A stretch of DNA of 34,352 nt from a virus. Taxonomy: Duplodnaviria; Heunggongvirae; Uroviricota; Caudoviricetes. Numbering within the stretch: position 1 is the stretch's first letter; the number at the start of each line of letters is the position of its first letter. The position numbers and the translations under genes are program-made. Shown piece by piece: positions 1 to 27,749 of the stretch. The stretch lies in IMG/VR virus record IMGVR_UViG_2660238524_000004. The stretch is one strand, 5' to 3'. Below the pieces are notes generated by a model. The model saw only the letters and a list, made by a program, of their open reading frames with translations, did no database searches and was not told the DNA's origin.

Positions 1-996
1 TTATGGACGCATTATGGACATTCCTGACACCGGGTTAAGAGTCACAGCATCTTGTAAGAAATCCGGTGCAAAGTGTGCGTAGGTCATAGTTTGCTGAATG
101 TTAGAATGACCCAGGATGCGCTGCAATGTGATTATGTTACCTCCATTCATTATAAAATGTGTGGCAAATGTATGCCTCAAAACATGTACTGCTTGTCCGT
201 CAGGTAAATCGGGTTTTACTTCCCTGAGAGCGTTACGCACTTTGTAGTAACTGGCATTAAAAAGCCTGCCTGAATTTTTGGTCTTGATCCGTTTAATCAG
301 GTCCTGCGAAACGGGAATTGTCCTGCGTTTTCCGTTTTTAGTTTTCATAAACGTAACCATCTGGTTAATGATGTGTTCAGCTTTTAAATTAGACACTTCA
401 CTCCAGCGTCCACCAGTAGAAAGGCAGACCAGAGTTGCATTTAATTCATCACCATCAAGCATGGATAACAGCCGCGTAATCTCTTCACTGGACAAAAAAG
501 CCATTTCCGTAACAGCTTCACGTAACCGTTTAATCTCACGGAACGGGTTGTGGGAGTGGTATTCACCGGCGTCAATTAACTTGGTGAACATCCCGCTCAT
601 TATTGCCAGATGTCGATTTACGCTGGCTGGTTTTAGACCATCGTTCATCATTACAACGCGATAATCAGTTATCGTTTTCTTTGTTAGCTGGTCAGCTCTG
701 GACACTCCCATTTCTGCAAATTTGGCGATTATTGTCGTTAAACGCCCCCGTTCAATATCTCCACGCTCATGTGATTTTCCGTGATATATCCACCATCTAC
801 CTAACAACTCTGTAAGAGTTCGGCGGTCGGCTGGTTTCTCCAACCACTCTTTGTTGTGGTAGTTAACCAGTACATGACGTTCGAATGCCTGAGCTTCACC
901 TTTAGTTTTAAATTTCCGCCTGATACGTTTTCCATCTGCACCCTGCGGTCTGACGTCCACTTCATAACGACCATCATCGAGCTTTTTAATAGACAT
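1..996 (-). CDS. int: Tyrosine integrase, P2 Int-like (331 aa); stop codon is at window positions 1-3
   Basis: Full ORF on minus strand; C-terminal catalytic region with HxxR...Y pattern (VLRHTFATHF ... TMTYAHF) typical of tyrosine recombinases; position next to the C repressor as in P2. Confidence 0.9.
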   Translation of the reverse strand: MSIKKLDDGRYEVDVRPQGADGKRIRRKFKTKGEAQAFERHVLVNYHNKEWLEKPADRRTLTELLGRWWIYHGKSHERGDIERGRLTTIIAKFAEMGVSRADQLTKKTITDYRVVMMNDGLKPASVNRHLAIMSGMFTKLIDAGEYHSHNPFREIKRLREAVTEMAFLSSEEITRLLSMLDGDELNATLVCLSTGGRWSEVSNLKAEHIINQMVTFMKTKNGKRRTIPVSQDLIKRIKTKNSGRLFNASYYKVRNALREVKPDLPDGQAVHVLRHTFATHFIMNGGNIITLQRILGHSNIQQTMTYAHFAPDFLQDAVTLNPVSGMSIMRP

Positions 997-3618: not shown

Positions 3619-5893
3619 AGCCTCAGGGCGTTTTGTCCCTCCGTCAGCATTTGCTGCAGGCACCGGTAAGGCGTTTACTGGTGCTTATGCATGGAACGCG
3701 CCACGCGAGGCTGTCGGGCGCGAAAGACCTCTTACACGTGACGAGATGCGTCAGGTGCAAGGTGTTTTATCCACGATTAACCGCCTGCCTTACTTTTTGC
3801 GCTCGCTGTTTACTTCACGCTATGACTACATCCGGCGCAATAAAAGCCCGGTGCACGGGTTTTATTTCCTCACATCCACTTTTCAGCGTCGTTTATGGCC
3901 GCGCATTGAGCGTGTGAATCAGCGCCATGAAATGAACACCGACGCGTCGTTGCTGTTTCTGGCAGAGCGTGACCACTATGCGCGCCTGCCGGGAATGAAT
4001 GACAAGGAGCTGAAAAAGTTTGCTGCCCGTATCTCATCGCAGCTTTTCATGATGTATGAGGAACTCAGCGATGCCTGGGTGGATGCGCATGGCGAAAAAG
4101 AATCGCTGTTTACGGATGAGGCGCAGGCTCACCTCTATGGTCATGTTGCTGGCGCTGCACGTGCTTTCAATATTTCCCCGCTCTACTGGAAAAAATACCG
4201 TAAAGGGCAGATGACCACGAGGCAGGCATATTCTGCCATTGCCCGCCTGTTTAACGATGAGTGGTGGACTCATCAGCTTAAAGGCCAGCGTATGCGCTGG
4301 CATGAGGCGTTACTGATTGCTGTCGGGGAGGTGAATAAAGACCGTTCTCCTTATGCCAGTAAACATGCCATTCGTGATGTGCGTGCACGCCGCCAGGCAA
4401 ATCTGGAATTTCTTAAATCGTGTGACCTTGAAAACAGGGAAACCGGCGAGCGCATCGACCTTATCAGTAAGGTGATGGGCAGTATTTCTAATCCTGAAAT
4501 TCGCCGGATGGAGCTGATGAACACCATTGCCGGTATTGAGCGTTACGCCGCCGCAGAGGGTGATGTGGGGATGTTTATCACGCTGACCACGCCGTCAAAG
4601 TATCACCCGACACGTCAGGTCGGAAAAGGCGAAAGTAAAACCGTCCAGCTTAATCACGGCTGGAATGATGAGGCATTTAATCCAAAGGATGCGCAGCGTT
4701 ATCTCTGCCGTATCTGGAGCCTGATGCGCACGGCATTCAAGGATAATGATTTACAGGCCTACGGTTTGCGTGTTGTTGAACCACACCACGACGGAACGCC
4801 GCACTGGCATATGATGCTTTTTTGTAATCCACGCCAGCGTAACCAGATTATTGAAATCATGCGTCGCTATGCGCTCAAAGAGGATGGCGACGAAAGAGGA
4901 GCCGCGCGAAACCGTTTTCAGGCAAAACACCTTAACCGGGGCGGTGCTGCGGGATATATCGCGAAATACATCTCAAAAAACATCGACGGCTATGCACTGG
5001 ATGGTCAGCTCGATAATGATACCGGTAGGCCGCTGAAAGACACAGCTGCTGCTGTTACCGCATGGGCGTCAACGTGGCGCATTCCGCAATTTAAAACGGT
5101 TGGTCTGCCGACAATGGGGGCTTACCGTGAACTACGCAAATTGCCTCGCGGCGTCAGCATTGCTGATGAGTTTGACGAGCGCGTCGAGGCTGCACGCGCC
5201 GCTGCAGACAGTGGTGATTTTGCGTTGTATATCAGCGCGCAGGGCGGGGCAAATGTCCCGCGCGATTGCCAGACTGTCAGGGTCGCCCGTAGCCCGTCGG
5301 ATGACGTTAACGAGTACGAGGAAGAAGTCGAGAGAGTGGTCGGCATTTACGCGCCGCATCTCGGCGCGCGTCATATTCATATCACCAGAACGACGGACTG
5401 GCGCATTGTTCCGAAAGTGCCGGTCGTTGAGCCTTTGACTTTAAAAAGCGGCATCGCCGCGCCTCGGAGTCCTGTCAATAACTGTGGAAAGCTCACCGGT
5501 GGTGATACTTCGTTACCGGCTCCCACACCTTCTGAGCACGCCGCAGCCGTGCTTAATCTGGTTGATGACGGAGTTATTGAATGGAATGAACCGGAGGTCG
5601 TGAGGGCGCTCAGGGGCGCATTAAAACACGACCTGCGAACGCCAAACCGTCAGCAGAGAAACGGAAGCCCGTTAAAACTACATGAAATTGCACCATCGGC
5701 CAGACTGACCCGGTCGGAAAGAATGCAAATTACCCGTATCCGCGTTGACCTTGCTCAGAACTGTATCAGGCCGCAGCGATGGGAGTTTGAGGCGCTGGCG
5801 CGTGGCGCGACCGTAAATTATGACGGAAAAAAATTCACGTATCCGGTCGCTGATGAGTGGCCGGGATTCTCAACAGTAATGGAGTGGAAATGA
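3608..5893 (+). CDS. A: Rolling-circle replication initiator endonuclease, P2 gpA (about 761 aa)
   Basis: ORF track gives 3566..5893; N-terminus from the ATG at 3608 (MAVKASGRFVPPSAF...) and most of the protein match my recollection of P2 A; HUH-type motif region (PHWHMMLF) and paired active-site tyrosines (YIAKYISK) present. Confidence 0.9.
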   Translation: MAVKASGRFVPPSAFAAGTGKAFTGAYAWNAPREAVGRERPLTRDEMRQVQGVLSTINRLPYFLRSLFTSRYDYIRRNKSPVHGFYFLTSTFQRRLWPRIERVNQRHEMNTDASLLFLAERDHYARLPGMNDKELKKFAARISSQLFMMYEELSDAWVDAHGEKESLFTDEAQAHLYGHVAGAARAFNISPLYWKKYRKGQMTTRQAYSAIARLFNDEWWTHQLKGQRMRWHEALLIAVGEVNKDRSPYASKHAIRDVRARRQANLEFLKSCDLENRETGERIDLISKVMGSISNPEIRRMELMNTIAGIERYAAAEGDVGMFITLTTPSKYHPTRQVGKGESKTVQLNHGWNDEAFNPKDAQRYLCRIWSLMRTAFKDNDLQAYGLRVVEPHHDGTPHWHMMLFCNPRQRNQIIEIMRRYALKEDGDERGAARNRFQAKHLNRGGAAGYIAKYISKNIDGYALDGQLDNDTGRPLKDTAAAVTAWASTWRIPQFKTVGLPTMGAYRELRKLPRGVSIADEFDERVEAARAAADSGDFALYISAQGGANVPRDCQTVRVARSPSDDVNEYEEEVERVVGIYAPHLGARHIHITRTTDWRIVPKVPVVEPLTLKSGIAAPRSPVNNCGKLTGGDTSLPAPTPSEHAAAVLNLVDDGVIEWNEPEVVRALRGALKHDLRTPNRQQRNGSPLKLHEIAPSARLTRSERMQITRIRVDLAQNCIRPQRWEFEALARGATVNYDGKKFTYPVADEWPGFSTVMEWK

Positions 5894-6345
5894 TGGCAAA
5901 AATTCACGAGGTAAAGCTGCACGCCAAATATTTTGACCTTGTGCTGGAAGGAAAGAAACGCGCAGAGTTTCGGAAAAATGACCGTAATTATGAGCGCGGG
6001 GACACGTTGATTTTGCATGAATGGGTACAGGGTGTGTATACGGGGCGAAAGGTTGAAGCCCGGATAACAGATGTTACTGACCTGTCAGACTGGCTGGAAG
6101 ATTATGTCTTGCTAAGTATTGAGCTGCTTAATACAGGCGCATATGAGATTGTGAACTGGAAAGAACTTAGTGAGCGTGGTCTGGTATTCAGAATTAATCA
6201 TGAAATTATGCATCAGCTCGGCCTTTCTGTTATGTATGAACCAGAGACGGGGATGTCTGGCGGGGCAATGGTTGCCACGGATGGAGCATGGAACTATTCA
6301 GATGAACAGATGGAGCGTGCACAGCAAAACGGGTGGCTTGGATAA
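5890..6345 (+). CDS. ASCH/EVE-like small protein (about 151 aa), P2 orf91 position
   Basis: ATG overlapping gene A stop (ATGATG at 5890-5895); N-terminal beta-barrel-like segment (KIHEVKLHAKYFDLVLEGKKRAEFRKNDRNYERGDTLILHEW) resembles ASCH/DUF3850-type domains; fold assignment is an impression only. Confidence 0.55.
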   Translation: MMAKIHEVKLHAKYFDLVLEGKKRAEFRKNDRNYERGDTLILHEWVQGVYTGRKVEARITDVTDLSDWLEDYVLLSIELLNTGAYEIVNWKELSERGLVFRINHEIMHQLGLSVMYEPETGMSGGAMVATDGAWNYSDEQMERAQQNGWLG

Positions 6346-6551
6346 TGCACAGAATACCAGGCGAGATACCGCAACATAAAACTAAAAATATCAAGCTGAT
6401 GGCTATTGTTCACCGTCTACAGCAGATTATGGTTAACGAAAATCTGACGCCTGACGAGCTGGTCGGGTGTGCCGAAATAGTCCGGGATAATTACGGGCGG
6501 TTTAACCATATCGGTCAATCCAGAGTTATGCCACCACCACGCAGACGATAG
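6345..6551 (+). CDS. Small hypothetical protein (68 aa)
   Basis: ATG overlapping the orf91 stop (TAATG); no recognisable motif; could be spurious. Confidence 0.25.
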   Translation: MHRIPGEIPQHKTKNIKLMAIVHRLQQIMVNENLTPDELVGCAEIVRDNYGRFNHIGQSRVMPPPRRR

Positions 6552-6780
6552 AGAACGCCGCCAGTCGTGAAACTTGTTTTCAGGGCTGGCGGGGTTGAAC
6601 AACGAGCGAAGCGAGGCGTTAGTTGACAGTAATATTTTTACTGCGTTGGTGCTGGTTTTTGACGGTTGAAAGGAGTTAGCTCGGAGAGCTAAAGCTAACA
6701 ACTTACAAATATTCAAAAGTAAGCTTCCTGTTGCTAACATAAGGTCGATTTTTTATGTGGATGATGCAAAAAGGATAGCT

Positions 6781-7512
6781 ATGGATACTGTAATCGCTTT
6801 TCTATCACTCGCTTTTTTCGTTGCTTTTTTCATCGGGTTAATCAAACCATCACTGGTGCGGATGCCAAACCGTAAACGTGCAAGTGCGGTTTATCTCGGA
6901 GGAGGTTTTGTATTGAGCATAATTGGTTCAATACTCTATCCAACAGAAAAAAGCCAGCCAGTTGCTAAAACTGAAACATCAACCGTTGCAGAACACCAAG
7001 TCCAAAAAACATTCGAATATGGTGGAAAAACACTCAAGGAATATCGGAACGAGCCAAAGAAAACTCGACACGATATTGTAAATAGTTACATTGATTTTAA
7101 GGAAGTGCCAGTCACCGCATCAGATGCATTTTATGCCTGCATGAGTGAATATACTTTTACCAAAGATGATGAGTTGAAACTCGGTGATGTTCTTGGATGG
7201 TGCTTTAATGATTATGAAAAAGATCCGCAATCACTAAACAATAAAATCAACCTTGATACATTTCAGAGTAATTTTAGTGGTTGGGATGGTTCTTATCGAC
7301 CATTGGAAAAGTTAATTAAAGAGAATATGAACGATGATTCATCTTATAAACATGTGTCAACAGTGTATCATTTAATCCTGAATAAAGACCCTCACGCCAT
7401 TGTGAAAACCACATTTCGCGGTACTAATGCCTATGGTGGTGTCGTGAAGCAAACAATAGCAGCGCGTGTTAATGTGAAAACGGGTGAAATAGTTTCGATA
7501 CTAAATAATTGA
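6781..7512 (+). CDS. Cargo gene 1 at the tin/old-equivalent locus: predicted 2-TM membrane protein with about 180-aa soluble C-terminal domain, unknown function
   Basis: ORF track 6757..7512 (GTG); ATG at 6781 has AGGA 5 nt upstream and is preferred; two hydrophobic segments (VIAFLSLAFFVAFFIGLI and AVYLGGGFVLSIIGSILY); AT-rich relative to backbone; sits where P2 carries tin. Confidence 0.65.
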   Translation: MDTVIAFLSLAFFVAFFIGLIKPSLVRMPNRKRASAVYLGGGFVLSIIGSILYPTEKSQPVAKTETSTVAEHQVQKTFEYGGKTLKEYRNEPKKTRHDIVNSYIDFKEVPVTASDAFYACMSEYTFTKDDELKLGDVLGWCFNDYEKDPQSLNNKINLDTFQSNFSGWDGSYRPLEKLIKENMNDDSSYKHVSTVYHLILNKDPHAIVKTTFRGTNAYGGVVKQTIAARVNVKTGEIVSILNN

Positions 7513-7716
7513 TGGTGATGCCACCGATACTGAAGTTTGATATTGTGTCGGTGGCATTGAAAGATGATCTTAAAGCATGTCTATTTTTTTGTTTTACATG
7601 ATTTTTTTTTGATGTGTTGTGCGTTGTTTTGTTTGTAATTAGAGTGCTTGATGATTTAAATTTCGTTTAAATGTTGTGTGAAAATATTGTGATTTTCTAT
7701 ATCAAGGATTTGTTTC

Positions 7717-8415
7717 ATGAAGTATTGTGGGATAGCTTTAATAATATGTCTTTGCTTGTTTATGTTCGCATTTGGTTTTGTGTTGGGTGGAGTTCAATGG
7801 GCATGGGGCGAGAGTGAAAATAATAGCAAGGTCGCATTTTGGACAATGCTAGGAGGGTGGGTGTCAGGATTGGCTACTCTCGCGGCTGTGGGGGTTTCAT
7901 TATTTACAAGTTATTATGCGATGATTTCAGGCAAAGAGAAAGTTGACGTTGTTTTTGCGCCTATATATACGACCTCTACGGCAAAAAAAGCAGATAAGCT
8001 TTCATTGCAAGATTTGGCTAATATCAAAGTGACAAATTTACACGGTGTGAAGTGTACTATTGTTAATGTTTATATGAAGTTTAGTGATGTTAAGGAACCA
8101 TTAAAGATTAATAACCTTAAACAGGGAGGTAAGCCAATACCTTATACGCTATGTAATATAAGCGATATGTGGGAGTTTGCATTTGGGATGGAGTCAAACC
8201 CTAGATTGAGATTTCTATTGTCAGGGTTGAAATATGAAGGTCGACCATCCTTTAAAAAAGGGCATTTCATCATTGAAACAGCAATGAAACAATACAAGTT
8301 AAAGATGCGGAAAGACTTTCTCTCAATATTACAGAGTGAGTATCAAAGCATAGAGGAAGAATCTAAACGTAACTCAGTTAAATCAGGGTGGTCACGGTAT
8401 AAAAAACTGAATTAA
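7717..8415 (+). CDS. Cargo gene 2 at the tin/old-equivalent locus: predicted 2-TM membrane protein (232 aa) with about 150-aa soluble C-terminal domain, unknown function
   Basis: Clean ORF with its own AT-rich upstream region; hydrophobic segments IALIICLCLFMFAFGFVLGGV and WTMLGGWVSGLATLAAVGVSLF; strongly AT-rich codon usage; occupies the position of P2 old but is far too short to be an Old ATPase-nuclease (586 aa). Confidence 0.7.
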   Translation: MKYCGIALIICLCLFMFAFGFVLGGVQWAWGESENNSKVAFWTMLGGWVSGLATLAAVGVSLFTSYYAMISGKEKVDVVFAPIYTTSTAKKADKLSLQDLANIKVTNLHGVKCTIVNVYMKFSDVKEPLKINNLKQGGKPIPYTLCNISDMWEFAFGMESNPRLRFLLSGLKYEGRPSFKKGHFIIETAMKQYKLKMRKDFLSILQSEYQSIEEESKRNSVKSGWSRYKKLN

Positions 8416-8557
8416 TTACCTAATCAGTTATCATGCATACACAATATGCATGGATTTGCATGCGCAAGCAGCATTCACATTGGTTGTTTTAGTTCAGGAC
8501 TGGTGCTGTTTCGACGTGTTCATGCAACTGCATTAAAACCGACCCATGAAGCGGGCG

Positions 8558-8576
8558 GGCGAGGCGGGGAAAGCAC
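8558..8576. other. P2-type cos cohesive-end sequence (19 nt GGCGAGGCGGGGAAAGCAC)
   Basis: Exact 19-mer that I recall as the P2 cohesive end, at the expected place just beyond the 3' end of portal gene Q. Confidence 0.55.
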
Positions 8577-8745
8577 TGCGCGCTGGCGGTGGTGCTGATT
8601 TTATTTTTTCAGCGTCTGAGCGCGTCGTGACGGCGTTTAGATTGTTCGCCGGGGCGTTGGTGTGTCTGCGGGATGTTTTGTGCGGTGGTGAGCGTGTGAG
8701 GGCGTGATGGCGGGTTGTAAAAAAGCCGCCCGCAGGCGGCGATGT

Positions 8746-9780
8746 TCAGCCGTTGTCAGTGTCCAGTGAGTAGTTTTTAAAGCGGATGACCTCCTGACCG
8801 AGCCAGCCGTTTATCTCGCGGATCCTGTCCTGTAGCGGGATAAGCTCATTGCGGACAAAGACCTTTGCCACTTTCTCAATATCACCCAGCGACCCGACGT
8901 TCTCCGGCTTGCCGCCCATCAACTGAAAGGGGATGCGGTGCGCGTCCAGCAGGTCAGCGGCGCTGGCTTTTTTGATATTAAAAAAATCGTCCTTCGTTGC
9001 CACTTCACTGAGCGGGATAATTTTAATGCCGTCGGCTTTTCCCTGTGGGGCGTAGAGAAACAGGTTTTTAAAGTTGTTGCGGCCTTTCGACTTCACCATG
9101 TTTTCGCGAAGCATTTCGATATCGTTGCGATCCTGCACGGCATCGGTGACGTACATGATATATCCGGCATGAGCGCCGTTTTCGTAATACTTGCGGCGGA
9201 ACAGCGTGGCCGACTCATTCAGCCAGGCAGAGTTAAGGGCGCTGAGATATTCCGGCAGGCCGTACAGCTCCTGATTAATATCCGGCTCCAGCAGGTGAAA
9301 CACGGAGCCGGGCGTGAAAGCTGTCGGCTCGTTGAAGGACGGCACCCACCAGTAAACATCCTCCTCCACCCCACGGCGGGTATATTTTGCCGGTGAGGTT
9401 TCCAGTCTGATGACCTTACCGGTAGTGCTGTAACGCTTTTCCAGAAACGCATTACCGAACACCAGAAAATCCAGCACAAAGCGGCTGAAATCCTGCTGGG
9501 AAAGCCACGGGTGCGGGATAAACGTTGAGGCCAGAATATTACGTTTGACGTAAATCGGTGAGCTGTGATGCACGGCAGCACGCAGGCTTTTTGCCAGACC
9601 GGTAAAGCTGACCGGTGGCTCATACCATCTGCCGTTACTGATGCACTCAACGTAATCCAGAATGTCACGGCGGTCGAGTACCGGCACCGGCTCACCAAAG
9701 GTGAATGCCGCCATTTTCGGGGCGCTGGCGGTCATTGTTTTTGCCGCAGGTTGCGGTGTTTTCCCTTTTTTCTTGCTCAT
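8746..9780 (-). CDS. Q: Portal protein, P2 gpQ (344 aa)
   Basis: Size and sequence consistent with P2 Q; adjacent to and co-oriented with terminase large subunit; start overlaps the P stop. Confidence 0.9.
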   Translation of the reverse strand: MSKKKGKTPQPAAKTMTASAPKMAAFTFGEPVPVLDRRDILDYVECISNGRWYEPPVSFTGLAKSLRAAVHHSSPIYVKRNILASTFIPHPWLSQQDFSRFVLDFLVFGNAFLEKRYSTTGKVIRLETSPAKYTRRGVEEDVYWWVPSFNEPTAFTPGSVFHLLEPDINQELYGLPEYLSALNSAWLNESATLFRRKYYENGAHAGYIMYVTDAVQDRNDIEMLRENMVKSKGRNNFKNLFLYAPQGKADGIKIIPLSEVATKDDFFNIKKASAADLLDAHRIPFQLMGGKPENVGSLGDIEKVAKVFVRNELIPLQDRIREINGWLGQEVIRFKNYSLDTDNG

Positions 9781-11552
9781 CAGTAAAACTCCAGAATGGT
9801 GGATGTCAGCGGGGTGCTGATACCGGCGGTGAGTGGCTCATTTAACAGGGCGTGCATGGTCGCCCAGGCGAGGTCGGCATGGCTGGCTTCCTCGCTGCGG
9901 CTGGCCTCATAGGTGGCGCTGCGTCCGCTGCTGGTCATGGTCTTGCGGATAGCCATGAACGAGCTGGTGATGTCGGTGGCGCTGACGTCATATTCCAGAC
10001 AGCCACGGCGGATAACGTCTTTTGCCTTGAGCACCATTGCGGTTTTCATTTCCGGCGTGTAGCGGATATCGCGCGCGGCGGGATAGAACGAGCGCACGAG
10101 CTGGAACACGCCGACACCGAGGCCGGTGGCATCAATTCCGATGTATTCAACGTTGTATTTTTCGGTGAGTTTGCGGATGGATTCCGCCTGTGTGGCAAAG
10201 TCCATGCCTTTCCACTGGTGACGCTCAAGTATTCTGAATTTGCCACCGGCCACCACCGGCGGTGCCAGTACCACGCATCCGGCGCTGTCGCCACGGTGTG
10301 ACGGGTCGTAACCAATCCAGACCGGGCGGGAGCCGAACGGATTAGCGGCAAACGGCGCATAGTCTTCCCATTCTTCCAGCGTGTCGACCATGCAGCGTTG
10401 CAGCTCCTCGAACGGGAACACCGACGCCTTGTCGTCAACAAATTCACACATGAACAGGTTTTTAAAATCGTCGGCGCTGTTTTCACGTTTGAGCTGCTCA
10501 ATGTCGAACAGCGTGCAGCCGCCTTTCAGGGCGTCCTCAATGGTGACAATCTGCCGCCACTGGCCGTCCGCACAGAGAAGCCCACCGGCAAGGGCGTTAT
10601 GACTGACGTCGATTTCCACGCGTTCAGCGGCGCTGGCGCGTCCCCGGTTAAACAGTTCACCCGACCAGAACGGGTAGGCGTCGTGCGCCAGCGTGGACGG
10701 GGTGGAGAAATAGGTCGAACGCAGGTGACTCTGTGAGGCCATACCTGATGCCACCTTACGCAGTACCTGAAAATTCGGGATCCAGAAAATCTCATCGACG
10801 TACAGGTCGCCGTTATGGCTCTGTGCGGTGTTGGAGTTGGTGCCGAGAAAAATCAGTTTTGCGCCGTTATTGCCCAGGACAATCGGGTCACCGGTCAGGT
10901 CAACGTCAACCAGCCGGGCAAAGGCGATGATGTATTCACGGAACACATACGCCTGCGTTTTACTGGCCGACAGAAAAATCTGGTTATGGCCGGTTTTCAG
11001 GGCGCGCAGCAGCGCCTCGCGGGAAAAATAAAACGTCGCGCCAATCTGACGGGATTTCAGGATATCGCGGATGCGGTGCTCAAGCCCGGCGCGATACCAG
11101 TGCAACTGATATTCGAAAGACTGCTCAAAGAAAATCTGCTCCAGCTTTTCGATGGCCTCGTCACTGAAAAAATTCTTTTTCGGTTTGCGACGCCCGCCTT
11201 TGTTGCGGTTAGCGACGTTCGGATTAAGGTCTGCCTCGTTGCCGGTCTGGCTGTAGCGGTTGACCCGTGCCAGTCGTTCAATCTGGCGTCCCAGCAGGTC
11301 AATTTCCTTGAAGTCACTGCCGGTTTTCTGCGGTTTGATGATGAGCTGGGTCAGCCGCGCTTCCAGACTCATTTCGACACGGCTGATGGGGGCAACGCTG
11401 TCCCAGCCGTCGCGCTGTTTCCAGCTCTGCACCGTCGGGCGTTTCATCTGCAACATGGCGGCAATCTGCGGCACGGAAAACCCCTGCCAGTACAGCAGCG
11501 CCGCCTGACGACGCGGGTCGTGTAAAAGAGTGGTGTCTGTGGTGATGGTCAT
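9780..11552 (-). CDS. P: Terminase large subunit (ATPase/nuclease), P2 gpP (590 aa)
   Basis: ORF track 9780..11582; start taken at the Met giving MTITTDTT... (590 aa, matching P2 P length). Confidence 0.9.
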   Translation of the reverse strand: MTITTDTTLLHDPRRQAALLYWQGFSVPQIAAMLQMKRPTVQSWKQRDGWDSVAPISRVEMSLEARLTQLIIKPQKTGSDFKEIDLLGRQIERLARVNRYSQTGNEADLNPNVANRNKGGRRKPKKNFFSDEAIEKLEQIFFEQSFEYQLHWYRAGLEHRIRDILKSRQIGATFYFSREALLRALKTGHNQIFLSASKTQAYVFREYIIAFARLVDVDLTGDPIVLGNNGAKLIFLGTNSNTAQSHNGDLYVDEIFWIPNFQVLRKVASGMASQSHLRSTYFSTPSTLAHDAYPFWSGELFNRGRASAAERVEIDVSHNALAGGLLCADGQWRQIVTIEDALKGGCTLFDIEQLKRENSADDFKNLFMCEFVDDKASVFPFEELQRCMVDTLEEWEDYAPFAANPFGSRPVWIGYDPSHRGDSAGCVVLAPPVVAGGKFRILERHQWKGMDFATQAESIRKLTEKYNVEYIGIDATGLGVGVFQLVRSFYPAARDIRYTPEMKTAMVLKAKDVIRRGCLEYDVSATDITSSFMAIRKTMTSSGRSATYEASRSEEASHADLAWATMHALLNEPLTAGISTPLTSTILEFY

Positions 11553-17926: not shown

Positions 17927-17992
17927 TTGTGCCATTCCCGACACCTCATCGTCACATTGCCGCCGGTATGACCCGGCGGCATCCTTCCCGTT

Positions 17993-18634
17993 ATGAACAC
18001 TCTCGCAAATATTCAGGAACTCGCGCGCGCACTGCGCAATATGATTCGCACCGGCGTTATCGTCGAAACCGACCTTAACGCCGGTCGCTGCCGTGTGCAG
18101 ACCGGCGGCATGTGCTCCGACTGGCTTCAGTGGCTGACCCATCGCGCCGGTCGTTCGCGCACATGGTGGGCACCTTCCGTGGGGGAACAGGTGCTGATTC
18201 TGGCTGTGGGCGGTGAACTCGACACGGCGTTCGTTCTGCCGGGGATTTATTCAGGTGATAACCCCGCGCCGTCTGCGTCGTCTGATGCCCTGCATATCCA
18301 TTTCCCTGACGGGGCGGTGATTGAGTATGAACCTGAAACCAGTGCACTGACGGTAAGTGGAATTAAAACGGCCAGCGTGACGGCTTCTGATTCTGTTACT
18401 GCCACGGTGCCGGTGGTCACGGTGAAAGCATCAACCCGCGTCACCCTGGACACACCGGAGGTGGTCTGCACTAACAAGCTGATTACCGGCACGCTGGAAG
18501 TGCAGAAGGGCGGGACGATGCGCGGCAACATTGAACACACCGGCGGGAAATTCACGTCTAACGGCGTTCAGGTTGATGACCACGGTCACGGTGGTGTTAA
18601 GTCAGGAGACAACTGGACACAGGGGACAAAATGA
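17993..18634 (+). CDS. V: Baseplate central spike protein, P2 gpV (213 aa)
   Basis: Length and order as P2 V, first gene of the V-W-J-I-H-G late operon. Confidence 0.8.
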   Translation: MNTLANIQELARALRNMIRTGVIVETDLNAGRCRVQTGGMCSDWLQWLTHRAGRSRTWWAPSVGEQVLILAVGGELDTAFVLPGIYSGDNPAPSASSDALHIHFPDGAVIEYEPETSALTVSGIKTASVTASDSVTATVPVVTVKASTRVTLDTPEVVCTNKLITGTLEVQKGGTMRGNIEHTGGKFTSNGVQVDDHGHGGVKSGDNWTQGTK

Positions 18635-20424: not shown

Positions 20425-23049
20425 ATGAGCACGAAATTTAAAACCGTTATCACTACTGCCGGAGCCGCGAAGCTGGCAGCCGCCACTGTTCCCGGCGGGA
20501 AAAAAGTAAACCTGTCTGCAATGGCTGTGGGGGACGGTAATGGCCAATTGCCGGTGCCGGATGCCGGTCAGACGAAACTGGTGCATGAAGTCTGGCGTCA
20601 CGCTCTGAATAAAGTCAGCGTGGATAATAAGAATAAAAACTATATCGTGGCTGAACTGGTTGTTCCGCCCGAAGTGGGCGGCTTCTGGATGCGTGAGCTT
20701 GGTCTGTATGATGATGCCGGAACACTGATTGCGGTATCCAACATGGCAGAAAGCTATAAGCCAGAACTGGCTGAAGGCTCCGGACGTGCGCAGACCTGCC
20801 GCATGGTTATTATTCTCAGCAACGTGGCGTCCGTTGAGCTGAGTATTGATGCCAGCACAGTGATGGCGACGCAGGATTACGTCGATGACAAAATCGCAGA
20901 GCATGAGCAGTCCCGCCGCCATCCTGACGCCACGCTGACAGAAAAAGGTTTTACTCAGTTAAGCAGTGCAACAAACAGCACCAGTGAAAAGCTGGCGGCA
21001 ACGCCAAAGGCAGTAAAAGCAGCCTATGACAATGCTGAGAAACGTCTGCAGAAAGACCAGAACGGTGGCGATATTCCAGATAAGGGCGCTTTTCTGGACA
21101 ATGTTGGCGTTACCAGCCTGACGTTTATGAAACACAATGGAATGATTCCAACCACTGACAATCTTGACTCCTATGGCCCAGAAGAAAAATATCTTGGAAC
21201 GTGGTCATGCCCGTCACAATCCACTGCAAAACCAGAGTCTGGTTACCCTGAAGATAAAGGCAATGGGGTTCTGGAAGTATTCAATGCTGGTCGCTTTCAC
21301 TGCACACAACGCTACACCACCCGAACCGGTAATATTTACATTCGGATGATTGATGCAGAATGGAACCCTGTCAGTCCTGTATGGAGTGCATGGAGAGTTA
21401 TTACAAGCGGGACTCGCCCATTAAGCACGTCAATTGACCTGAATTCTTTAGGTGGTGCGGAACACCTGGGAATATGGCGCAATAGCAGTACATCAATAGC
21501 CTCATTTGACCGTCATTTCCCGGAGGAAGGGAGTTTTGGGCAGGGTATTCTGGAAGTCTTTGAAGGAGGTCTGTATGGGAGGATGCAACGTTACACCACC
21601 CGTAGTGGGACTATGTACATTCGCGGACTGACTGCCTCATGGGATGCAGAAAATCCACAATGGGAGGACTGGATTGCTGTTGGGTATCAGTCCACGGGAT
21701 GGACTTATTCAGGGGATCTTGATGACCTTTTAAAGCCTGGTATTTATAGCGTTACGAAACAGGCCACAAATGCACCTGTCACCGACTCTAAAGATCTTGC
21801 TGTTGGCTCAATAGTTGAAGTGAAAAAACGTTGTGATATTGAATCGTATATCCAGACATACACGACTGTTTCAGCAACGGATGCCTATAAAAACCGGACA
21901 TTTCAGCGAACCCGCGCCAGCGGTGAAACTGACTGGGGGGAATGGGCGGAAGTATACAACTCAAAATCATTACTCACTAAATTAGGTGTCGGCGGTGTTA
22001 CCGACAGGTTATCCAGTCTGGACTGGCAGACCTACGACTTTATACCGGGCAGCATGATAACTGTCAGGCTTTCAGATATGACCAATATTCCCGATGGGAT
22101 GGAATGGGGCGTCATTGATACTAACCTGATAAATATCACTGTTGGCCCCAGTGAAGGCGGAGGTGTCGCCCGTTCAATGCAGGTATGGCGCAGCACTTCA
22201 AACAAAACCAACTATCGTTTTTTTACAGTCCGCTTATATGGCAATCCTGGGGAGCGTAGCTTCAATATTCGTCGGCTACCAATTATCGACGAAGCCCAGA
22301 CATGGGAGGCAAAACAGACATTCAGTGCAGGCCTTTCTGGTGAACTGTCCGGCAATGCGGCTACAGCAACAAAGCTGAAAACGGCAAGGACAATTAACGG
22401 CGTAAAATTTGACGGCTCGGCAAATATTGAAGCGTTTCCGCCTGGTGTTCCGCTGCCGTGGCCATCAGATACACCACCTGCAGGATATGCAATCATGCAG
22501 GGGCAGACGTTTGATAAGACTGCATATCCGAAACTGGCTATTGCCTATCCTTCTGGTGTTATTCCAGATATGCGCGGCTGGACAATCAAGGGCAAACCCG
22601 CCAGTGGGCGTGCCGTATTGTCACAGGAACAGGACGGGATTAAATCGCATACTCACAGTGCCAGTGCGTCAAATACGGATTTGGGAACGAAAACAACCAG
22701 TTCGTTTGATTACGGGACGAAGACAGTCAGTACGTTTAACTACGGAACAAAAACCACTAATACCACTGGTAACCATACACATACCATTTACAGAGGGAAT
22801 GCCAATACTAATGGTGAAACCGGTAAAACAGGCTTTGACAACCCATCGTTTAATGGCACATCAGGAGCTGCCGGGAATCATGCCCACACGGTAGATATTG
22901 GCGCACATAATCATACGGTTGGTATTGGTGCACATTCACACACGGTTGCTATTGGCTCACACGGGCACTCTATTACCGTTAATGCTACAGGTAATACAGA
23001 AAACACCGTCAAAAACATCGCATTCAACTATATTGTGAGGCTTGCATAA
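20425..23049 (+). CDS. H: Tail fibre protein H (874 aa), mosaic: P2 H-like N-terminal anchor plus lambda Stf-like C-terminal receptor-binding region with HxH repeats
   Basis: First about 200 aa match my recollection of P2 H ([19 protein letters not shown]...); C-terminus ends ...[14 protein letters not shown] as in lambda Stf; His-rich GxHxH repeats ([33 protein letters not shown]). Confidence 0.85.
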
Positions 23050-23417
23050 TGGCTTTCAGAATGAGTGCAGAAGCACAAACTATCCGCGTTTTCAATTTAC
23101 TTGATGGAACCAATGAATTTATTGGCGAAAGTGATGCATATATTCCACCGTATACTGGCCTGCCTGCAAACAGTACAGATATTGCACCACCTGATATTCC
23201 TGCTGGTTATGCAGCCGTTTTCAATGCAGATGAAATGAAATGGGAGTTGATGGAAGATCATCGCGGAAAGACTGTCTACGAAACGAAAACGGGAGCAGCC
23301 ATTTATATTTCTGAACTTGGCGCATTACCTCCAGACGTGACAGCCATTTCCCCGGATGGGGATTATCAGAAATGGAACGGAAATGCGTGGGTGAATGATG
23401 AGTGCGTATTACCGTGA
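23049..23417 (+). pseudogene. tfa: Tail fibre assembly chaperone (lambda Tfa-like), N-terminal fragment truncated by IS insertion; last 15 nt, including the stop, come from the IS end
   Basis: N-terminus [51 protein letters not shown] closely resembles lambda Tfa; native reading frame ends at 23402 where the IS begins. Confidence 0.8.
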
Positions 23418-23487
23418 AGGAGATCGGTGAGTAACATCGATGGAGATCGGTTCGTGTCACTTTCACAGAACCGTTTTTAAATTACCT

Positions 23488-24237
23488 TCACTGATCTCCT
23501 TCGGTCAACGGAGATTGTATTTTCCGCATTGATTCTCCTTTAAGTTCGATCTTGATACTGCCATGAACCAGTCGATCTAGGATGGCATCCGCATGTGTGG
23601 AGTCTCCGATCATTTTGTACCAGTTTTCCACCGGCAACTGGCTCACTACGATGATTGAGCCTCGTTGGTACATCAGATCCACTATTTCCAGCAGGTCGCT
23701 ACGCTGTTCTGATGAGAGAGGTTCCAGCCCCCAGTCATCCAGAAGCAGCAGATCGCTATTATTCAGCCTGGTCAAAAGTTTGCTGTATCTTCCATCAGCA
23801 TGCCCCTGATAGCACTGTTCCATCAGCGCTTTAAGGCGATAATAGTAGACCTTGTATCCCTGTCGGCAGGCATTATGACCAAGTGCACATGCCAGGAACG
23901 TTTTACCGCTGCCGGTGGCCCCGGTCAGTAAAATATTTTGTTTCAGGGTTAACCAGTTTCCCTGACTGAGTGAACGGATGAGGGCCCTGTCCAGCCCTCT
24001 ATTGTTACGATAATCCAGCTTTGATAACTCAGCATTAAGTCTGAACCGTGCATGTTTGATCAGACGCTCTGCCTTCCTGTTTTCACGGCAGGTTAGTTCT
24101 TCTGCTGTCAGTAATGACAGGCGTTCTTCGAAGCCCAGCTCCTGGTATGTGCCCGGTTGAGCAAGTTGCTTTTTAAGCGCATCACGGAAGCCGGTGAGTT
24201 TAAGTGCGGTCAGTTGTTCGTAAAGATGATTCATCAT
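23488..24237 (-). CDS. istB: IS21-family helper ATPase IstB (249 aa)
   Basis: Walker A motif GATGSGKT and DnaA/DnaC-like AAA+ region; immediately downstream of istA. Confidence 0.9.
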   Translation of the reverse strand: MMNHLYEQLTALKLTGFRDALKKQLAQPGTYQELGFEERLSLLTAEELTCRENRKAERLIKHARFRLNAELSKLDYRNNRGLDRALIRSLSQGNWLTLKQNILLTGATGSGKTFLACALGHNACRQGYKVYYYRLKALMEQCYQGHADGRYSKLLTRLNNSDLLLLDDWGLEPLSSEQRSDLLEIVDLMYQRGSIIVVSQLPVENWYKMIGDSTHADAILDRLVHGSIKIELKGESMRKIQSPLTEGDQ

Positions 24238-24248
24238 TGGATCCCGTA

Positions 24249-25790
24249 TCAGTGGTAATACTCACTGCCGCGTACGTTTTCGTGTTCCATCGTGGATAAC
24301 AGATCTGGTTTTGGATCCTGAACAGGTTGTTTATCCAGACCTTTTTCCAGGATCGATTTAATACCTGACAGACGCCATACCTTTGTTTTCAGAGCTCTTG
24401 CACATGCTGCATTAAGTCTGGCTTTACTGTATTTTTTATGAAGGTTCAGGAGTCCAAGGCAGAAGCGATAGCTTTGTTCCGGATGTGGACGAGAGTTCAG
24501 TATATGAAGCACATAACTATGAGTTTCACTGCCTATGTGCCCCGCCCATTCCAGAAGACGCTCTGGCGTCCAGGTGGCATGCTGTCGATGAGCTTCAGGC
24601 ATGTGCTCGTTGCGGGTACTGTAGCCATAAGTACGCTTGCGCGGGTGCACAGCAACCTCCTGCCCCTGATTGAAGAGTCTTACCAGTTCTCCGGAGATCC
24701 ATGCTTCCAGTTGCTGGCCTAACAGCGAACATGGAACCGAGTAGTAATGTTTGTCGATTTCCACGTGGTAATCGGCATGAACTCTGACTTTCTTCACCAG
24801 GGTGTAACTGTAACTGGCTTCAGGAAGAGGCTTCAGTGCGGGTTTATCAAGCTGGATGAAGAGTTCTGCACGTGAATAACCCAACTTCTGCATTATTTTG
24901 TTATTCAGTCTTTCCAGCAACTCCCGAATGCGCTGATTAAGCGATGCAAGGCTGTAGAAGATCTCATGCCTGATTCGGGCCATGATCCAGCGTTCAACAA
25001 CCTGAACGCCAACTTCAGCTTTGGCTTTATCTTTCGGTTTACGTGGCCGCGCAGGCAAAACTGCGACATTATAATGCTCAAGCATCTGCTGGTAGGTAGG
25101 GTTAACGTCAGGATCATACTTACATGCCCTGGATGTGGCGCTTTTCAGATTGTCCGGAACAACAAGTTCAGGAACGCCACCCAACCACTGGAAGCAGCGA
25201 ACATGACTCATCACCCAGTCTTCAAGCTGCTGAGACCAGGTGGCCTCTGCCCATGTGTAACTTGATGCCCCGAGAACAGCTACGATGACCTGAGCAGTTC
25301 TTATTTCTCCGGTCTCAGGGTCGGTAACGCCAACGGTAGGTCCACAGTAATCAACGAAAAGTTTTTCGCCAGCTTTATGTACCTGACGCATTGATGGTGA
25401 AGTGGTTTTGAGCCATTCACGGTACATCCGGCAGTAATGGTTATAGCTGTAAAAACCGCCTGGATTACGCTCACAGTATTCTTCCCAGAGTAGCTGCAGC
25501 GTCACGCATTTATTACGCAGTTCCCGGTGTACTGTAGCCCAGTCAGGCAGAGAGTGCTTCTTCATCTTAACCTGGGTCTGAAGGAACGCATGTTTTAGTT
25601 TTGTATCATCCCATCCTGTAGGTAAGGGCCACTGCTTTATGCCAAGTTGAGCCGCCCGATTAGCATATCTGGATACAACGGAAGGGGAGATTGCAAGACT
25701 ACGACCAATTTGTCGATGGCTGAGTCCAACACCGTATTTAAGCCTAAGAATTTCTTTAAGTTTTCTCATAGAAATTGGAACTGTTGGCAT
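24249..25790 (-). CDS. istA: IS21-family transposase IstA (513 aa)
   Basis: N-terminal HTH, central DDE-type integrase core; followed by istB with a short spacer as in IS21-family elements. Confidence 0.9.
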   Translation of the reverse strand: MPTVPISMRKLKEILRLKYGVGLSHRQIGRSLAISPSVVSRYANRAAQLGIKQWPLPTGWDDTKLKHAFLQTQVKMKKHSLPDWATVHRELRNKCVTLQLLWEEYCERNPGGFYSYNHYCRMYREWLKTTSPSMRQVHKAGEKLFVDYCGPTVGVTDPETGEIRTAQVIVAVLGASSYTWAEATWSQQLEDWVMSHVRCFQWLGGVPELVVPDNLKSATSRACKYDPDVNPTYQQMLEHYNVAVLPARPRKPKDKAKAEVGVQVVERWIMARIRHEIFYSLASLNQRIRELLERLNNKIMQKLGYSRAELFIQLDKPALKPLPEASYSYTLVKKVRVHADYHVEIDKHYYSVPCSLLGQQLEAWISGELVRLFNQGQEVAVHPRKRTYGYSTRNEHMPEAHRQHATWTPERLLEWAGHIGSETHSYVLHILNSRPHPEQSYRFCLGLLNLHKKYSKARLNAACARALKTKVWRLSGIKSILEKGLDKQPVQDPKPDLLSTMEHENVRGSEYYH

Positions 25791-25983
25791 AGGTATCCTT
25801 TACCGGAATGGCAAAAGATACAGATCAACACACCTGTGAAGTTCCAATAACATTGATGGAGATCACTGAATAACAAAATGAGTCAAAAGTGATCTCCATC
25901 GATGTTATTCAGCGATCTGTTCAAATGTTATTACCCGATCTCGATGGAAGTTATTGAGTGATCTCCTTTCATGAAAATACGCA

Positions 25984-26213
25984 ATGAGAATGCAGAGCGT
26001 GATGCACTTGTCAGAGCGGCGGAGTCTCAGAAGAAAGAGCAGATTGCATATGCCGGTGAAATTATTGCCACGCTGCAGGATGCTGTCGATTTAGATATGG
26101 CTACCGAGGAAGAAAAGTTAAGTCTGACACACTGGAAAAAATACCGTGTGCTACTGAATCGCGTTCAGCCGGAAGATGCTCCGGATATAGAATGGCCGGA
26201 AATGCCGCGATAA
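25984..26213 (+). pseudogene. tfa: Tail fibre assembly chaperone (lambda Tfa-like), C-terminal fragment downstream of the IS
   Basis: Frame continuing from the target duplication encodes ...NAERDALVRAAESQKKEQIAYAGEIIATLQDAVDLDMATEEEKLSLTHWKKYRVLLNRVQPEDAPDIEWPEMPR, resembling the lambda Tfa C-terminus; joining 23049-23402 to 25989-26213 restores a 192-aa ORF. Confidence 0.8.
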
Positions 26214-26469
26214 ATTGTATTAGCTCGGATGTGAGTTTACACATCTATAGCACAGAGTAAAACCTAATCTGGCTGTCCGCTCTGTGCTAGGAGCGGACAT
26301 TACCAAGTAACATGCCTTAATCAAAAGGAAATGGTTAATATATGCCATCATTGTTTGAAAAATACGCAGTCATATATTGCTATGAACATTGTTGGTGCAT
26401 TAACTTGCTTAAGAAACTACAATTAAGCATCATAAAATACTCTTATGACTTTTAAGGCTCTACCGTATC

Positions 26470-26877
26470 ATGGCTAAGCGGATTCCTGGTGTTAGTAAAG
26501 AATGGTCTAACTATCTCCTTTGTTTATTATTACATATGTCTTTACCTCTCTTACCTTTGGGGTTCGAGACACTTGTGCGTTCCGATCACTTGCCATCAAT
26601 ACAAACATTAAACATTACAGCGGCGTTTTATGCGATCTCGATAGGGCTTTCTTCTAAGAACGTTGCTATGTTTGGTTTGGGTATATTCGTGAGCATTTGT
26701 TTCTCTGTTGTATTTGGGATTGTTTCTTCAAATCCTAATTCTGATCCTAATCTTAATTTTAATGATAACTTGTATTTTTATTCTCCAATTGCGTGTATTG
26801 TTGCTATATTTGTTATACATGCATGTGAACGATATAACAGGCATGTTGCTGATTGTACACCATTTTTTGAGTTTTAA
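26470..26877 (+). CDS. Cargo gene at the Z/fun-equivalent locus: small multi-pass membrane protein (up to 135 aa), unknown function
   Basis: AT-rich ORF with several hydrophobic segments (LLCLLLHMSLPLLPLGF, AAFYAISIGL, FGLGIFVSICFSVVFGIV, IACIVAIFVI); no clear RBS at the first ATG so the start is uncertain. Confidence 0.45.
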   Translation: MAKRIPGVSKEWSNYLLCLLLHMSLPLLPLGFETLVRSDHLPSIQTLNITAAFYAISIGLSSKNVAMFGLGIFVSICFSVVFGIVSSNPNSDPNLNFNDNLYFYSPIACIVAIFVIHACERYNRHVADCTPFFEF

Positions 26878-26886
26878 GGGGGTGCT

Positions 26887-27378
26887 ATGATTGATACAAT
26901 TATCCCAGTAATACTATCAATTCTCCCGGCAATACTATCTATATTTAGCTTAGTAGCTGTTTCTATAGGTGCATTAGTATCTATCAGGTCTGTTAAAAAA
27001 AGACGTGAAATAGAAGTTCAGCTTTTTAATGAGATAATAAATCAACAAATTAAACAAACTAAAAGCAACCGTAAAAAGGATCTTGAAAATAGTGTTAATG
27101 AAATAGAAAATGAACTCAAGAGAAGAGTTGATATTTTGAATAAAATGCAAAAAGATCTAGAAGCAGTTTCAGAGAACAAATACTATTTTGATAAAGCAAA
27201 ATATCTTCGAAATGTCAAGTATGGAGAGTATTTATTAGAGATAAATGAAGCTGTGAATAATATTGATAATAAAAACAAACACTTACTAAATAACGCTCTT
27301 AATCAAAGCTCTGAGATTGGAAAAGTAAGATATCTTGGAAGAATAACAAAGGAAGCACTGGAAAAAACAGTAGGCTGA
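26887..27378 (+). CDS. Cargo gene at the Z/fun-equivalent locus: single-TM protein with long K/E/N-rich coiled-coil-like domain (163 aa), unknown function
   Basis: RBS AAGGGGG 6 nt upstream of the ATG; N-terminal hydrophobic segment IIPVILSILPAILSIFSLVAVSIGALV then charged helical region; very AT-rich. Confidence 0.65.
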   Translation: MIDTIIPVILSILPAILSIFSLVAVSIGALVSIRSVKKRREIEVQLFNEIINQQIKQTKSNRKKDLENSVNEIENELKRRVDILNKMQKDLEAVSENKYYFDKAKYLRNVKYGEYLLEINEAVNNIDNKNKHLLNNALNQSSEIGKVRYLGRITKEALEKTVG

Positions 27379-27620
27379 TCATTTTTTCCGCTCGTAATAG
27401 ATAAACTCAAAGGTTCTTTTTGAGAGCCTTTGAGTTTCAATCTTACCAATATTACTCACCATTTCTTTAGCAGCAATTTGGGGACTATAACTTCTACTTC
27501 TTGCTGTGAGTTCAACCGATGGATACAACACATTGGCTAAAACGCCCTGTGGGTGATTCATAGTCTAGCGTTTGGACTCCGTAAATTCACAGTTGGAAAC
27601 TGAGCGAGTACAAATCAAGG

Positions 27621-27650
27621 CCGGCGGGCTGATTGCCCGCCTTTTCTTTA
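27621..27650 (+). terminator. Rho-independent terminator-like hairpin between cargo locus 2 and the FI late promoter
   Basis: GGCGGGC-tgatt-GCCCGCC stem-loop followed by TTTTCTTT. Confidence 0.5.
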
Positions 27651-27660
27651 CCGGTGGTTG

Positions 27661-27690
27661 TGCTGTTGATTAGCCAACCGGGACAAATAG
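27661..27690 (+). promoter_or_regulatory. Candidate Ogr-dependent late promoter element for the FI-FII-E-T-U-D operon
   Basis: GTGCTGTTGATTAGCCAACCGGGACA about 65-90 nt upstream of the FI ATG; shares the GTGCTGTTG ... GAT(A/T)AGCCA(A/T)CCGGGAC motif with the P/O region. Confidence 0.45.
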
Positions 27691-27749
27691 CCTGACATCT
27701 CCGGCACAACTGAAAATACCACTCACCCATTAACCACGGAGTTAAACGG

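Follow-up and report, generated by a model that had tools for sequence, protein, structure and literature searches.

An ISEc12 insertion splits the tail fibre assembly gene of a P2-like prophage

Tail fibre assembly (Tfa) proteins, such as gpG of phage P2, Tfa of lambda and U of Mu, are encoded just downstream of their fibre gene. They are built of modules: the N-terminal domain binds the fibre, and a conserved, helical domain at the C terminus mediates trimerisation (PMC9608196). The assembly of P2 fibres requires gpG (PMC9594776). Elements of the IS21 family, such as IS21 and IS5376, encode a DDE transposase, IstA, and an AAA+ ATPase, IstB. Their termini are TG...CA, with several repeats located just inside them, and their insertion generates direct target duplications of 4-8 bp. 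One of these elements, ISEc12, was described in tssM of Escherichia coli ST131 clade C, with a target duplication of 5 bp (PMC10711316). We analyzed a viral DNA stretch of 34,352 nucleotides (IMG/VR record IMGVR_UViG_2660238524_000004), referred to as the window, in which ISEc12 lies within the tfa gene of a prophage (Table 1). The copy in tssM has the identical 2581 bp, the same istA-istB genes and the same duplication length, and in both cases the element splits a structural gene that belongs to a machine of the contractile-tail type. The element differs between the two cases solely in its target site; however, the insertion in tssM has reached fixation in a global clone, whereas that in tfa is rare.

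Table 1. Positions in the window of ISEc12, its ends and genes, and the interrupted tfa gene
Feature	Position	Strand	Basis
Tail fibre gene (P2 gpH equivalent), 874 aa, client of Tfa	20425..23049	+	ORF, Pfam, annotated relative
tfa 5' fragment (P2 gpG equivalent), codons 1-118	23049..23402	+	ORF, Pfam
Left target-site duplication copy, ATGAG	23398..23402		Single occurrence at empty site
ISEc12 (IS21 family), complete copy	23403..25983	-	100% identity to PGAP-annotated copies
IRR, istB-proximal terminal inverted repeat, ~50 nt	23403..23452		End alignment
istB, AAA+ helper ATPase, 249 aa	23488..24237	-	NF038214, PF01695, IS5376 structures
istA, DDE transposase, 513 aa	24249..25790	-	NF033546, Pfam rve + Mu-transpos_C_2, IS5376 structures
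IRL, istA-proximal terminal inverted repeat, ~51 nt	25933..25983		End alignment
Right target-site duplication copy, ATGAG	25984..25988		Sequence
tfa 3' fragment, codons 119-192 + stop, conserved C-terminal helical region	25989..26213	+	ORF, Pfam, Mu Tfa alignment

A preliminary description of the window had reported an IS21-family element of 2581 bp with istA and istB genes of 513 and 249 codons, and the ORFs, the curated IS21 models and the identity to ISEc12 all agree with this. The element is complete, has 5'-TG...CA-3' termini and matches, at 100% identity along its entire 2581 nt, many copies located on plasmids and chromosomes of E. coli; its name is the PGAP label on identical RefSeq copies ("IS21-like element ISEc12 family"). 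As in the two-gene order of IS21, istA precedes istB on the same strand, with 11 nt between them. IstA scored 310.5 bits against the model of IS21 family transposases (NF033546, cutoff 160), matched the Pfam families rve and Mu-transpos_C_2 and could be aligned to the IstA structures of IS5376 (8Q4D/8B4H). In the alignment with 8Q4D, the motifs vD(y/w), DN(l/m)K and K(a/g)K(a/v)E are conserved and the catalytic core is thus kept. IstB scored 270 bits against NF038214 (cutoff 200) and 227 bits against PF01695, contains Walker A (GATGSGKT) and Walker B (LLLLDD) motifs, and was aligned to the IS5376 IstB structures 8Q3W/5BQ5. Compared with IS21/IS5376, ISEc12 is longer (2581 bp) and has a larger IstA (513 aa), and the alignment of the latter with the IS5376 protein is limited to residues 107-389 (E = 3e-13).

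The two ends of the element form imperfect inverted repeats of 50 and 51 nt, with one gap and 39 of 51 columns identical. The score of this alignment was 26, whereas 2000 shuffles averaged -9.1 (sd 3.9) and reached at most 5; it is thus some 9 sd above the shuffles. The length of about 48 bp given originally was therefore a fair estimate, and a failure of the ends to align, named earlier as grounds for refuting the insertion, did not occur. Six of the seven GGAGATC motifs in the window are located no more than 130 nt from an IS end, namely, two repeats (23419 and 23442) and an inverted copy (23493) on the IRR side, and two repeats (25960(-) and 25891(-)) and an inverted copy (25858(+)) on the IRL side. 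The direct repeat of ATGAG on both flanks, also noted previously, was found at the same positions.

The tfa gene is located directly downstream of the tail fibre gene, with the stop codon of the latter overlapping the tfa start at 23049 (TAATG). The preliminary description had proposed that the gene was split after codon 118 and that an ORF of 192 amino acids could be restored. Indeed, removal of the IS and one ATGAG in silico resulted in a 192-aa ORF identical to the annotated protein WP_106023090.1. The rejoined protein matched the whole PF02413 profile (positions 1-131; 136.3 bits, cutoff 22.1), which is that of the Caudo_TAP family of P2 gpG, lambda Tfa and Mu U, and the phrog_105 family "tail fiber assembly" (E = 4e-90), whereas the two fragments match consecutive stretches of PF02413, positions 1-53 and 57-131. 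Residues 74-191 align to Tfa of phage Mu (PDB 5YVQ), and on the basis of this homology and the literature, the protein probably acts as chaperone of its cognate fibre. Judging from sequence alignment, the insertion appears to fall near the boundary of two segments, the variable, fibre-binding N-terminal one (residues 1-118) and the conserved, helical C-terminal one (residues 119-192), and to part them. The two ORFs labelled "tail fiber assembly" and "hypothetical" that lie beside the IS are the halves of one gene.

The prophage is P2-like (Peduovirus) and not lambdoid. Its gene order follows that of P2, with int, C, cox, A, Q-P, O-N-M-L, X and the lysis genes, continuing with R-S, V-W-J-I-H-G, FI-FII-E-E'-T-U-D and ogr, as read from the annotation of a 100%-identical prophage and Pfam matches on locus L021. 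The window is colinear with the classified Peduovirus P24A7b at 99.2-99.98% identity. The interrupted gene had initially been called lambda Tfa-like, which holds for the protein family but not for the phage: since the prophage is P2-like, the gene is the equivalent of that of gpG. In the DNA, the stretch from the last part of the fibre gene into the beginning of tfa shares 79% identity with lambda stf/tfa. The myovirus analyzed here needs its fibres for adsorption, whereas stf/tfa are dispensable in laboratory lambda.

An empty site was found in E. coli NZ_OZ039410.1, isolate 30348_2#316. Without the IS and one ATGAG, the window corresponds to 31,766 bp that align without a single mismatch to an intact prophage in this genome, in which tfa is uninterrupted (579 nt) and ATGAG occurs once. 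The same intact 579-nt gene is present in AR_0081, in Peduovirus P24A7b (NC_049390.1) and in about 120 complete genomes. The possibility that homologous prophages carry the same sequence at this site without the IS genes, raised earlier as a sign that there had been no insertion, was thus not borne out. Both P24A7b and the NZ_OZ039410.1 prophage (100% identity) lack the IS; they are colinear over their whole length and contain the same fibre, tfa and cargo genes, and P24A7b has, in addition, a gene of 786 nt that lies between the equivalents of S and V. P24A7b is probably viable, as suggested by the naming scheme and by the fact that it was deposited as a phage genome. The Nat Commun 2020 coliphage paper includes seven plaque-forming P2virus isolates, named by strain; P2_4A7b is not named in its main text, and searches of the literature for P24A7b/4A7b/LR595887 or PhiR12 retrieved nothing relevant. 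An IS-free isogenic lysogen and a deposited phage genome exist as natural controls.

Short-read assemblies are often broken or mis-joined by IS copies, and in GCA_004566555.1 one contig ends just inside the IS. A chimeric join at an IS copy, with no real insertion, would account for such a juxtaposition. However, both junctions are present, the 5-bp sequence that is single at the empty site is perfectly duplicated at them, and the flanks are two in-frame halves of one gene. In addition, the left junction was found as an exact match to the window in three independent data sets, namely, a Logan contig and two assemblies, one of them with a 3.97-Mb scaffold that extends across the entire IS. An assembly artefact is thus so improbable that it can be set aside. 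Considering the identity of the empty-site prophage over 31,766 bp, the intact tfa in other genomes and the small number of carrier contigs, the insertion is proven, recent and rare. The 122-aa product specific to the junction was found in only 5 to 7 contigs, as compared to 46 contigs with the identical intact protein, and it did not occur in any of 5,426 complete E. coli genomes. Of the 128 genomes that contain this tfa family, nearly all have the gene intact. The event is thus restricted to a lineage and is most simply regarded as neutral for the host.

Taken together, these data indicate, with little room for doubt, that ISEc12 transposed into tfa of a resident prophage near-identical to P24A7b, that the full-length chaperone would be lost and that the particles are expected not to adsorb. 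By analogy to the IS21 family, IstA would bind the repeated GGAGATC-containing sites in both ends, IstB would assist in the capture of target DNA, and a cut with a 5-bp stagger followed by repair would give rise to the ATGAG duplication. Full-length Tfa would then no longer be made, gpH fibres would fail to assemble, any particles released would be unable to adsorb and the prophage would be inherited only vertically. The requirement for gpG in P2 fibre assembly makes this loss of infectivity likely. The immunity, replication and lysis genes as well as the cargo cassette are untouched by the insertion. Accordingly, although otherwise complete, this prophage is best classed as very probably unable to spread. 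If the added 2.6 kb by itself affected packaging, as it might, this would confound a simple account of the infectivity defect based on tfa.

We also considered that Tfa function survives and the phage remains infectious, either through the cooperation of the two fragments or through complementation by tfa of another prophage. The split near the boundary of the two modules would suit the former. The left ORF encodes 118 native residues and then CVLP before a stop at 23417 supplied by the IS, resulting in 122 aa, and beside the right fragment of 74 codons, an ORF of 80 aa opens in frame at an ATG at 25971 inside the IS end and spans the whole C-terminal region. However, this ATG is not preceded by a Shine-Dalgarno sequence (...GATCTCCTTTC), and a consensus scan found no outward promoter-like site at either IS end, so that transcription of the 3' tfa fragment or of the cargo genes from an outward IS promoter was rejected. 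Furthermore, in the chaperone model the fibre-binding and trimerising modules are on one chain (PMC9608196). As for complementation, tfa of this allele family is present twice in some E. coli genomes, and a compatible Tfa from other prophages in the same host could act in trans. The viable lambdoid PhiR12 phages tolerate ISEc12 in a gene of the fibre region, but the interrupted gene encodes a DUF4376 protein of a J-dependent siphophage and not the Caudo_TAP chaperone of an essential fibre; they were therefore discarded as a like-for-like precedent. On balance, retention of Tfa function is improbable, though less so than any other alternative considered here.

A different matter is whether the insertion was selected, with the disabled fibre chaperone as a step toward domestication that locks in the adjacent AT-rich cargo cassette. 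The preliminary description had suggested such an effect on cargo retention, and some observations agree with it: the disrupted prophage was inherited by several sequenced isolates, a low-GC cassette is located directly downstream, at 26470-27378, and in related P2-like prophages ISEc12 independently entered two further positions of tfa, nt 67 and nt 500. These tfa insertions, however, came from queries centred on tfa and are subject to ascertainment bias, and ISEc12 also occupies numerous further accessory loci, which share no target consensus. The rest of the prophage is undecayed, without any difference from the intact relative, and the allele is rare, as reflected in its absence from the complete genomes and the intact tfa in nearly all members of the family. 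The cassette appears to be transcriptionally autonomous, since a promoter-like site and a strong terminator are part of the cassette itself, and would thus be independent of the state of tfa. Judging from P2 biology, the loss of tfa should block neither excision, replication nor lysis, and for this reason the host would not be protected from induction. The proposal is thus unsupported, and we consider selection for domestication very unlikely. The cargo genes and a second variable region had no matches in Pfam, NCBIfam or PADLOC.

The behavior of ISEc12 at other loci is in line with that observed here. Copies were found at many unrelated sites, each with its own duplication, which reflects the mobility of the element. 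The duplication had 5 bp in 14 of the 17 independent insertions sampled, but duplications of 6, 7 and 8 bp were also seen. Both ISEc12 and its mode of action are known, and the event, though real, is ordinary and of low significance. It provides one clean, dated example of IS-mediated prophage inactivation, and its importance beyond annotation is slight.

With respect to target choice, copies selected for matches to 10-20 nt of the flank suggested a consensus (e.g., GGGT.AATGA), which we rejected as a ranking artefact because the copies had been ranked by that very similarity. When sites were sampled without this bias, via the identical IstB, neither the flanks nor the duplications (GCCGC, TCACC, ACTGC, ACGTA, CCCGG, ACTTT, and ATAAG) showed a consensus. 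Separately, ISEc12 was observed to have entered P2-like (Peduovirus) prophages independently at at least eight sites, three of which are in the 579-bp tfa (nt 67, 354 and 500). That ISEc12 enters tfa of P2-like prophages more often than expected by chance, either through a regional bias of IstB-mediated capture or through selection for a non-spreading prophage, is very unlikely. If an unbiased census showed recurrent insertion of ISEc12 in Peduovirus tail genes to be true, the gain for the understanding of IS21-family target choice and prophage decay would be modest. A scan with the 41-nt IS end in a collection that contains one genome per species retrieved one contig, from E. albertii.

The window comprises a whole P2-like prophage, bounded by int (1-996, minus strand) and ogr, and the analysis confirmed the structural reading that a copy of ISEc12 is inserted in its tail fibre assembly gene, tfa. 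The element between the two ATGAG copies measures 2581 bp. Its ends form imperfect inverted repeats of 50/51 nt: a one-gap alignment has 39 identical columns out of 51 and scores 26, as compared with a mean of -9.1 (standard deviation, 3.9) and a maximum of 5 for 2000 shuffles. Furthermore, six of the seven copies of the heptamer GGAGATC in the 34-kb window are located within ~130 nt of the IS ends, in mirrored orientation. The curated IS21 transposase model was matched by IstA with 310.5 bits (cutoff, 160) and the IS21 helper-ATPase model by IstB with 270 bits (cutoff, 200), and each protein aligns to the solved structure of its IS5376 counterpart. As far as they can be read from sequence, the defining features of the IS21 family are all present. 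Many complete E. coli chromosomes, as well as conjugative plasmids from Escherichia, Shigella, and Klebsiella, contain copies with 100% identity to the element over its full length, and PGAP labels all of these copies as IS21-like element ISEc12. The ORFs, family models, and repeats thus bear out the preliminary description, which had reported an IS21-family element of this length and position with inverted-repeat ends and an ATGAG duplication.

Features of the ISEc12 insertion in tfa, the neighbouring cassette, and ISEc12 insertions in P2-like prophages and PhiR12 phages
Feature	Location	Strand	Details
Target duplication, left copy	23398-23402		ATGAG
Target duplication, right copy	25984-25988		ATGAG
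istA ORF	25790-24249	minus	513 aa
istB ORF	24237-23488	minus	249 aa
5' tfa fragment	23049-23402		118 native codons, then CVLP-stop read from the IS
3' tfa fragment	25989-26213		74 codons
Two-gene cargo cassette	26470-27378		AT-rich; ORFs 26470-26877 and 26887-27378
ISEc12 at tfa nt 354	window 23403-25983		duplication ATGAG
ISEc12 at tfa nt 500	strains 20377 and 22919		duplication CACTG
ISEc12 at tfa nt 67	LS4 and CCUG 73778	opposite orientation	duplication ACCAATG (7 bp)
ISEc12 in tape-measure gene, first event	AR_0081
ISEc12 in tape-measure gene, second event	FDAARGOS_1286		duplication GCGGG
ISEc12 in gpW	MS20653		duplication ACGGT
ISEc12 between L and M equivalents	L011 (comparison locus)		duplication GCCGC
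ISEc12 between Q and P equivalents	MS7163		duplication CTCATC (6 bp)
ISEc12 in phages PhiR12_2_star/PhiR12_1	L027/L028 (PV340551/PV340549) 6001-8581		94 nt into 193-aa DUF4376 gene downstream of J; duplication GGCGG

The two tfa fragments match consecutive stretches of the Pfam profile PF02413 (positions 1-53 and 57-131). Rejoining them without one ATGAG copy yielded a 192-aa ORF with a 136-bit match to the entire profile, in agreement with the split after codon 118 and the restorable ORF noted initially. The gene directly follows an 874-aa gpH-type fibre gene, with a stop/start overlap of TAATG, and since the window is a P2-like prophage, the interrupted gene is the gpG equivalent. It had been termed lambda Tfa-like, which holds for the protein family but not for the phage, which has the canonical P2 late-gene order; lambda stf/tfa shares 79% DNA identity with the fibre-tip/tfa junction of the window, whereas the phage itself is not lambdoid. 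An in-frame ATG at 25971, inside the IS end, begins an 80-aa ORF that includes the C-terminal part of Tfa. This start lacks a Shine-Dalgarno sequence, and neither of the IS ends showed an outward promoter-like site.

After removal of the IS and one ATGAG, the remaining 31,766 bp did not differ at any position from a prophage of E. coli NZ_OZ039410.1 (within 10172-45368), which is integrated intergenically between pflA and pflB, contains an uninterrupted tfa of 579 nt, and has no genes flagged as defective. Strain AR_0081 and the deposited genome of phage Peduovirus P24A7b also have the intact gene at 100% identity, as do ~120 further complete genomes at ≥95% identity. Homologous prophages thus carry the empty site, and the insertion stands. 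An assembly artefact was ruled out by the recurrence of the junction in independent assemblies and data sets, together with the presence at each of the two junctions of a copy of ATGAG, which occurs once at the empty site. The exact IS/tfa junction was absent among 5,426 complete E. coli genomes, and its specific 122-aa product was present on only 5-7 contigs (the identical intact protein, on 46), one of them a 3.97-Mb scaffold of GCA_001030365.1 that contains the entire IS and is an exact match to window positions 13049-33417. Of the 128 complete genomes that have this tfa allele family, the gene was split in only ~5 records, corresponding to 2 events. The insertion is recent and lineage-restricted, since the IS does not differ from copies elsewhere and its flanks show no divergence. 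It is thus a case of a catalogued IS with the usual behaviour of its family, in what is essentially a known phage.

In P2, assembly of the gpH fibre needs gpG (PMC9594776). Tfa proteins are modular, with a variable N-terminal domain for fibre binding and a conserved C-terminal helical domain for trimerisation (PMC9608196). Residues 74-191 of the reconstructed Tfa align to phage Mu Tfa (PDB 5YVQ), which places the break after residue 118 at about the start of the helical C-terminal region, so that the insertion would separate the two modules. Our best inference is that no functional chaperone would be made, that fibres would fail to assemble, and that released particles would be unable to adsorb, leaving the prophage to vertical inheritance only. 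This plausible outcome could be altered by trans complementation from the tfa of another prophage or by an effect of the extra 2.6 kb on packaging. Four deposited lambdoid phages, grown on MG1655 or E. coli C, carry the full ISEc12 with one mismatch, PhiR12_2_star and PhiR12_1 among them; virions can therefore hold the element when the interrupted gene is dispensable.

The preliminary description had also suggested that the prophage is becoming domesticated, which would favour retention of its cargo genes. This idea found no support, as the rest of the prophage is base-for-base that of the intact one and the split allele is rare. From P2 biology, loss of the fibre chaperone would leave excision, replication, and lysis unblocked, so that the host would gain no protection from induction. 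Also arguing against domestication, ISEc12 resides in many kinds of accessory DNA, including CP4-type islands, a lambdoid lom gene, tssM, and sites near fimbrial genes, with no target consensus in an unbiased sample of its sites. Moreover, the cargo cassette appears not to depend on the state of tfa, as a promoter-like site of its own (26409-26438) precedes it and a strong terminator (27623-27641) follows. Its GC content is 0.29-0.35, versus 0.51 for the window, and it encodes small proteins with hydrophobic segments. The cassette returned no matches in Pfam, NCBIfam, or PADLOC; its first protein corresponds to phrog_22626 (function unknown). The cassette may represent an uncharacterised module for lysogenic conversion or defence. 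The cargo region (26214-27749) occupies the P2 Z/fun position, with tfa on one side and the sheath gene on the other.

ISEc12 was found independently inserted at no fewer than eight sites in P2-like prophages (the window and loci L001, L002, L005, L006, L011, L025, and L026). Three sites in the 579-bp tfa looks high, but the searches were centred on tfa and this count is therefore not evidence of enrichment. The target duplication is not fixed in length: it was 5 bp in 14 of the 17 independent events extracted, and 6 bp (CTCATC), 7 bp (ACCAATG), and 8 bp (ATGATGCG) in one event each, these odd lengths setting loci L010, L025, and L026 apart from the other ISEc12 loci. A 5-bp duplication has likewise been published for an ISEc12 copy in the tssM gene of ST131 (PMC10711316).

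The window extends from the int stop codon to the ogr stop, and the att sites are thus located outside it. A second variable region (5857-8415), between the replication and portal genes at the P2 old/tin position, encodes a DUF3850 protein along with two products of unknown function (phrog_3403 and phrog_16957), with no PADLOC matches; the related prophages of LS4 and MS7163 have different genes at this position. Peduovirus P24A7b is colinear with the window at 99.2-99.98% identity. Between its S and V equivalents (9367-10306), it carries an extra 786-nt minus-strand gene, the hypothetical HYP17_gp16, whereas the window has only a 64-nt spacer (17928-17993); the S-V gap is thus a further point of variable insertion among these phages.
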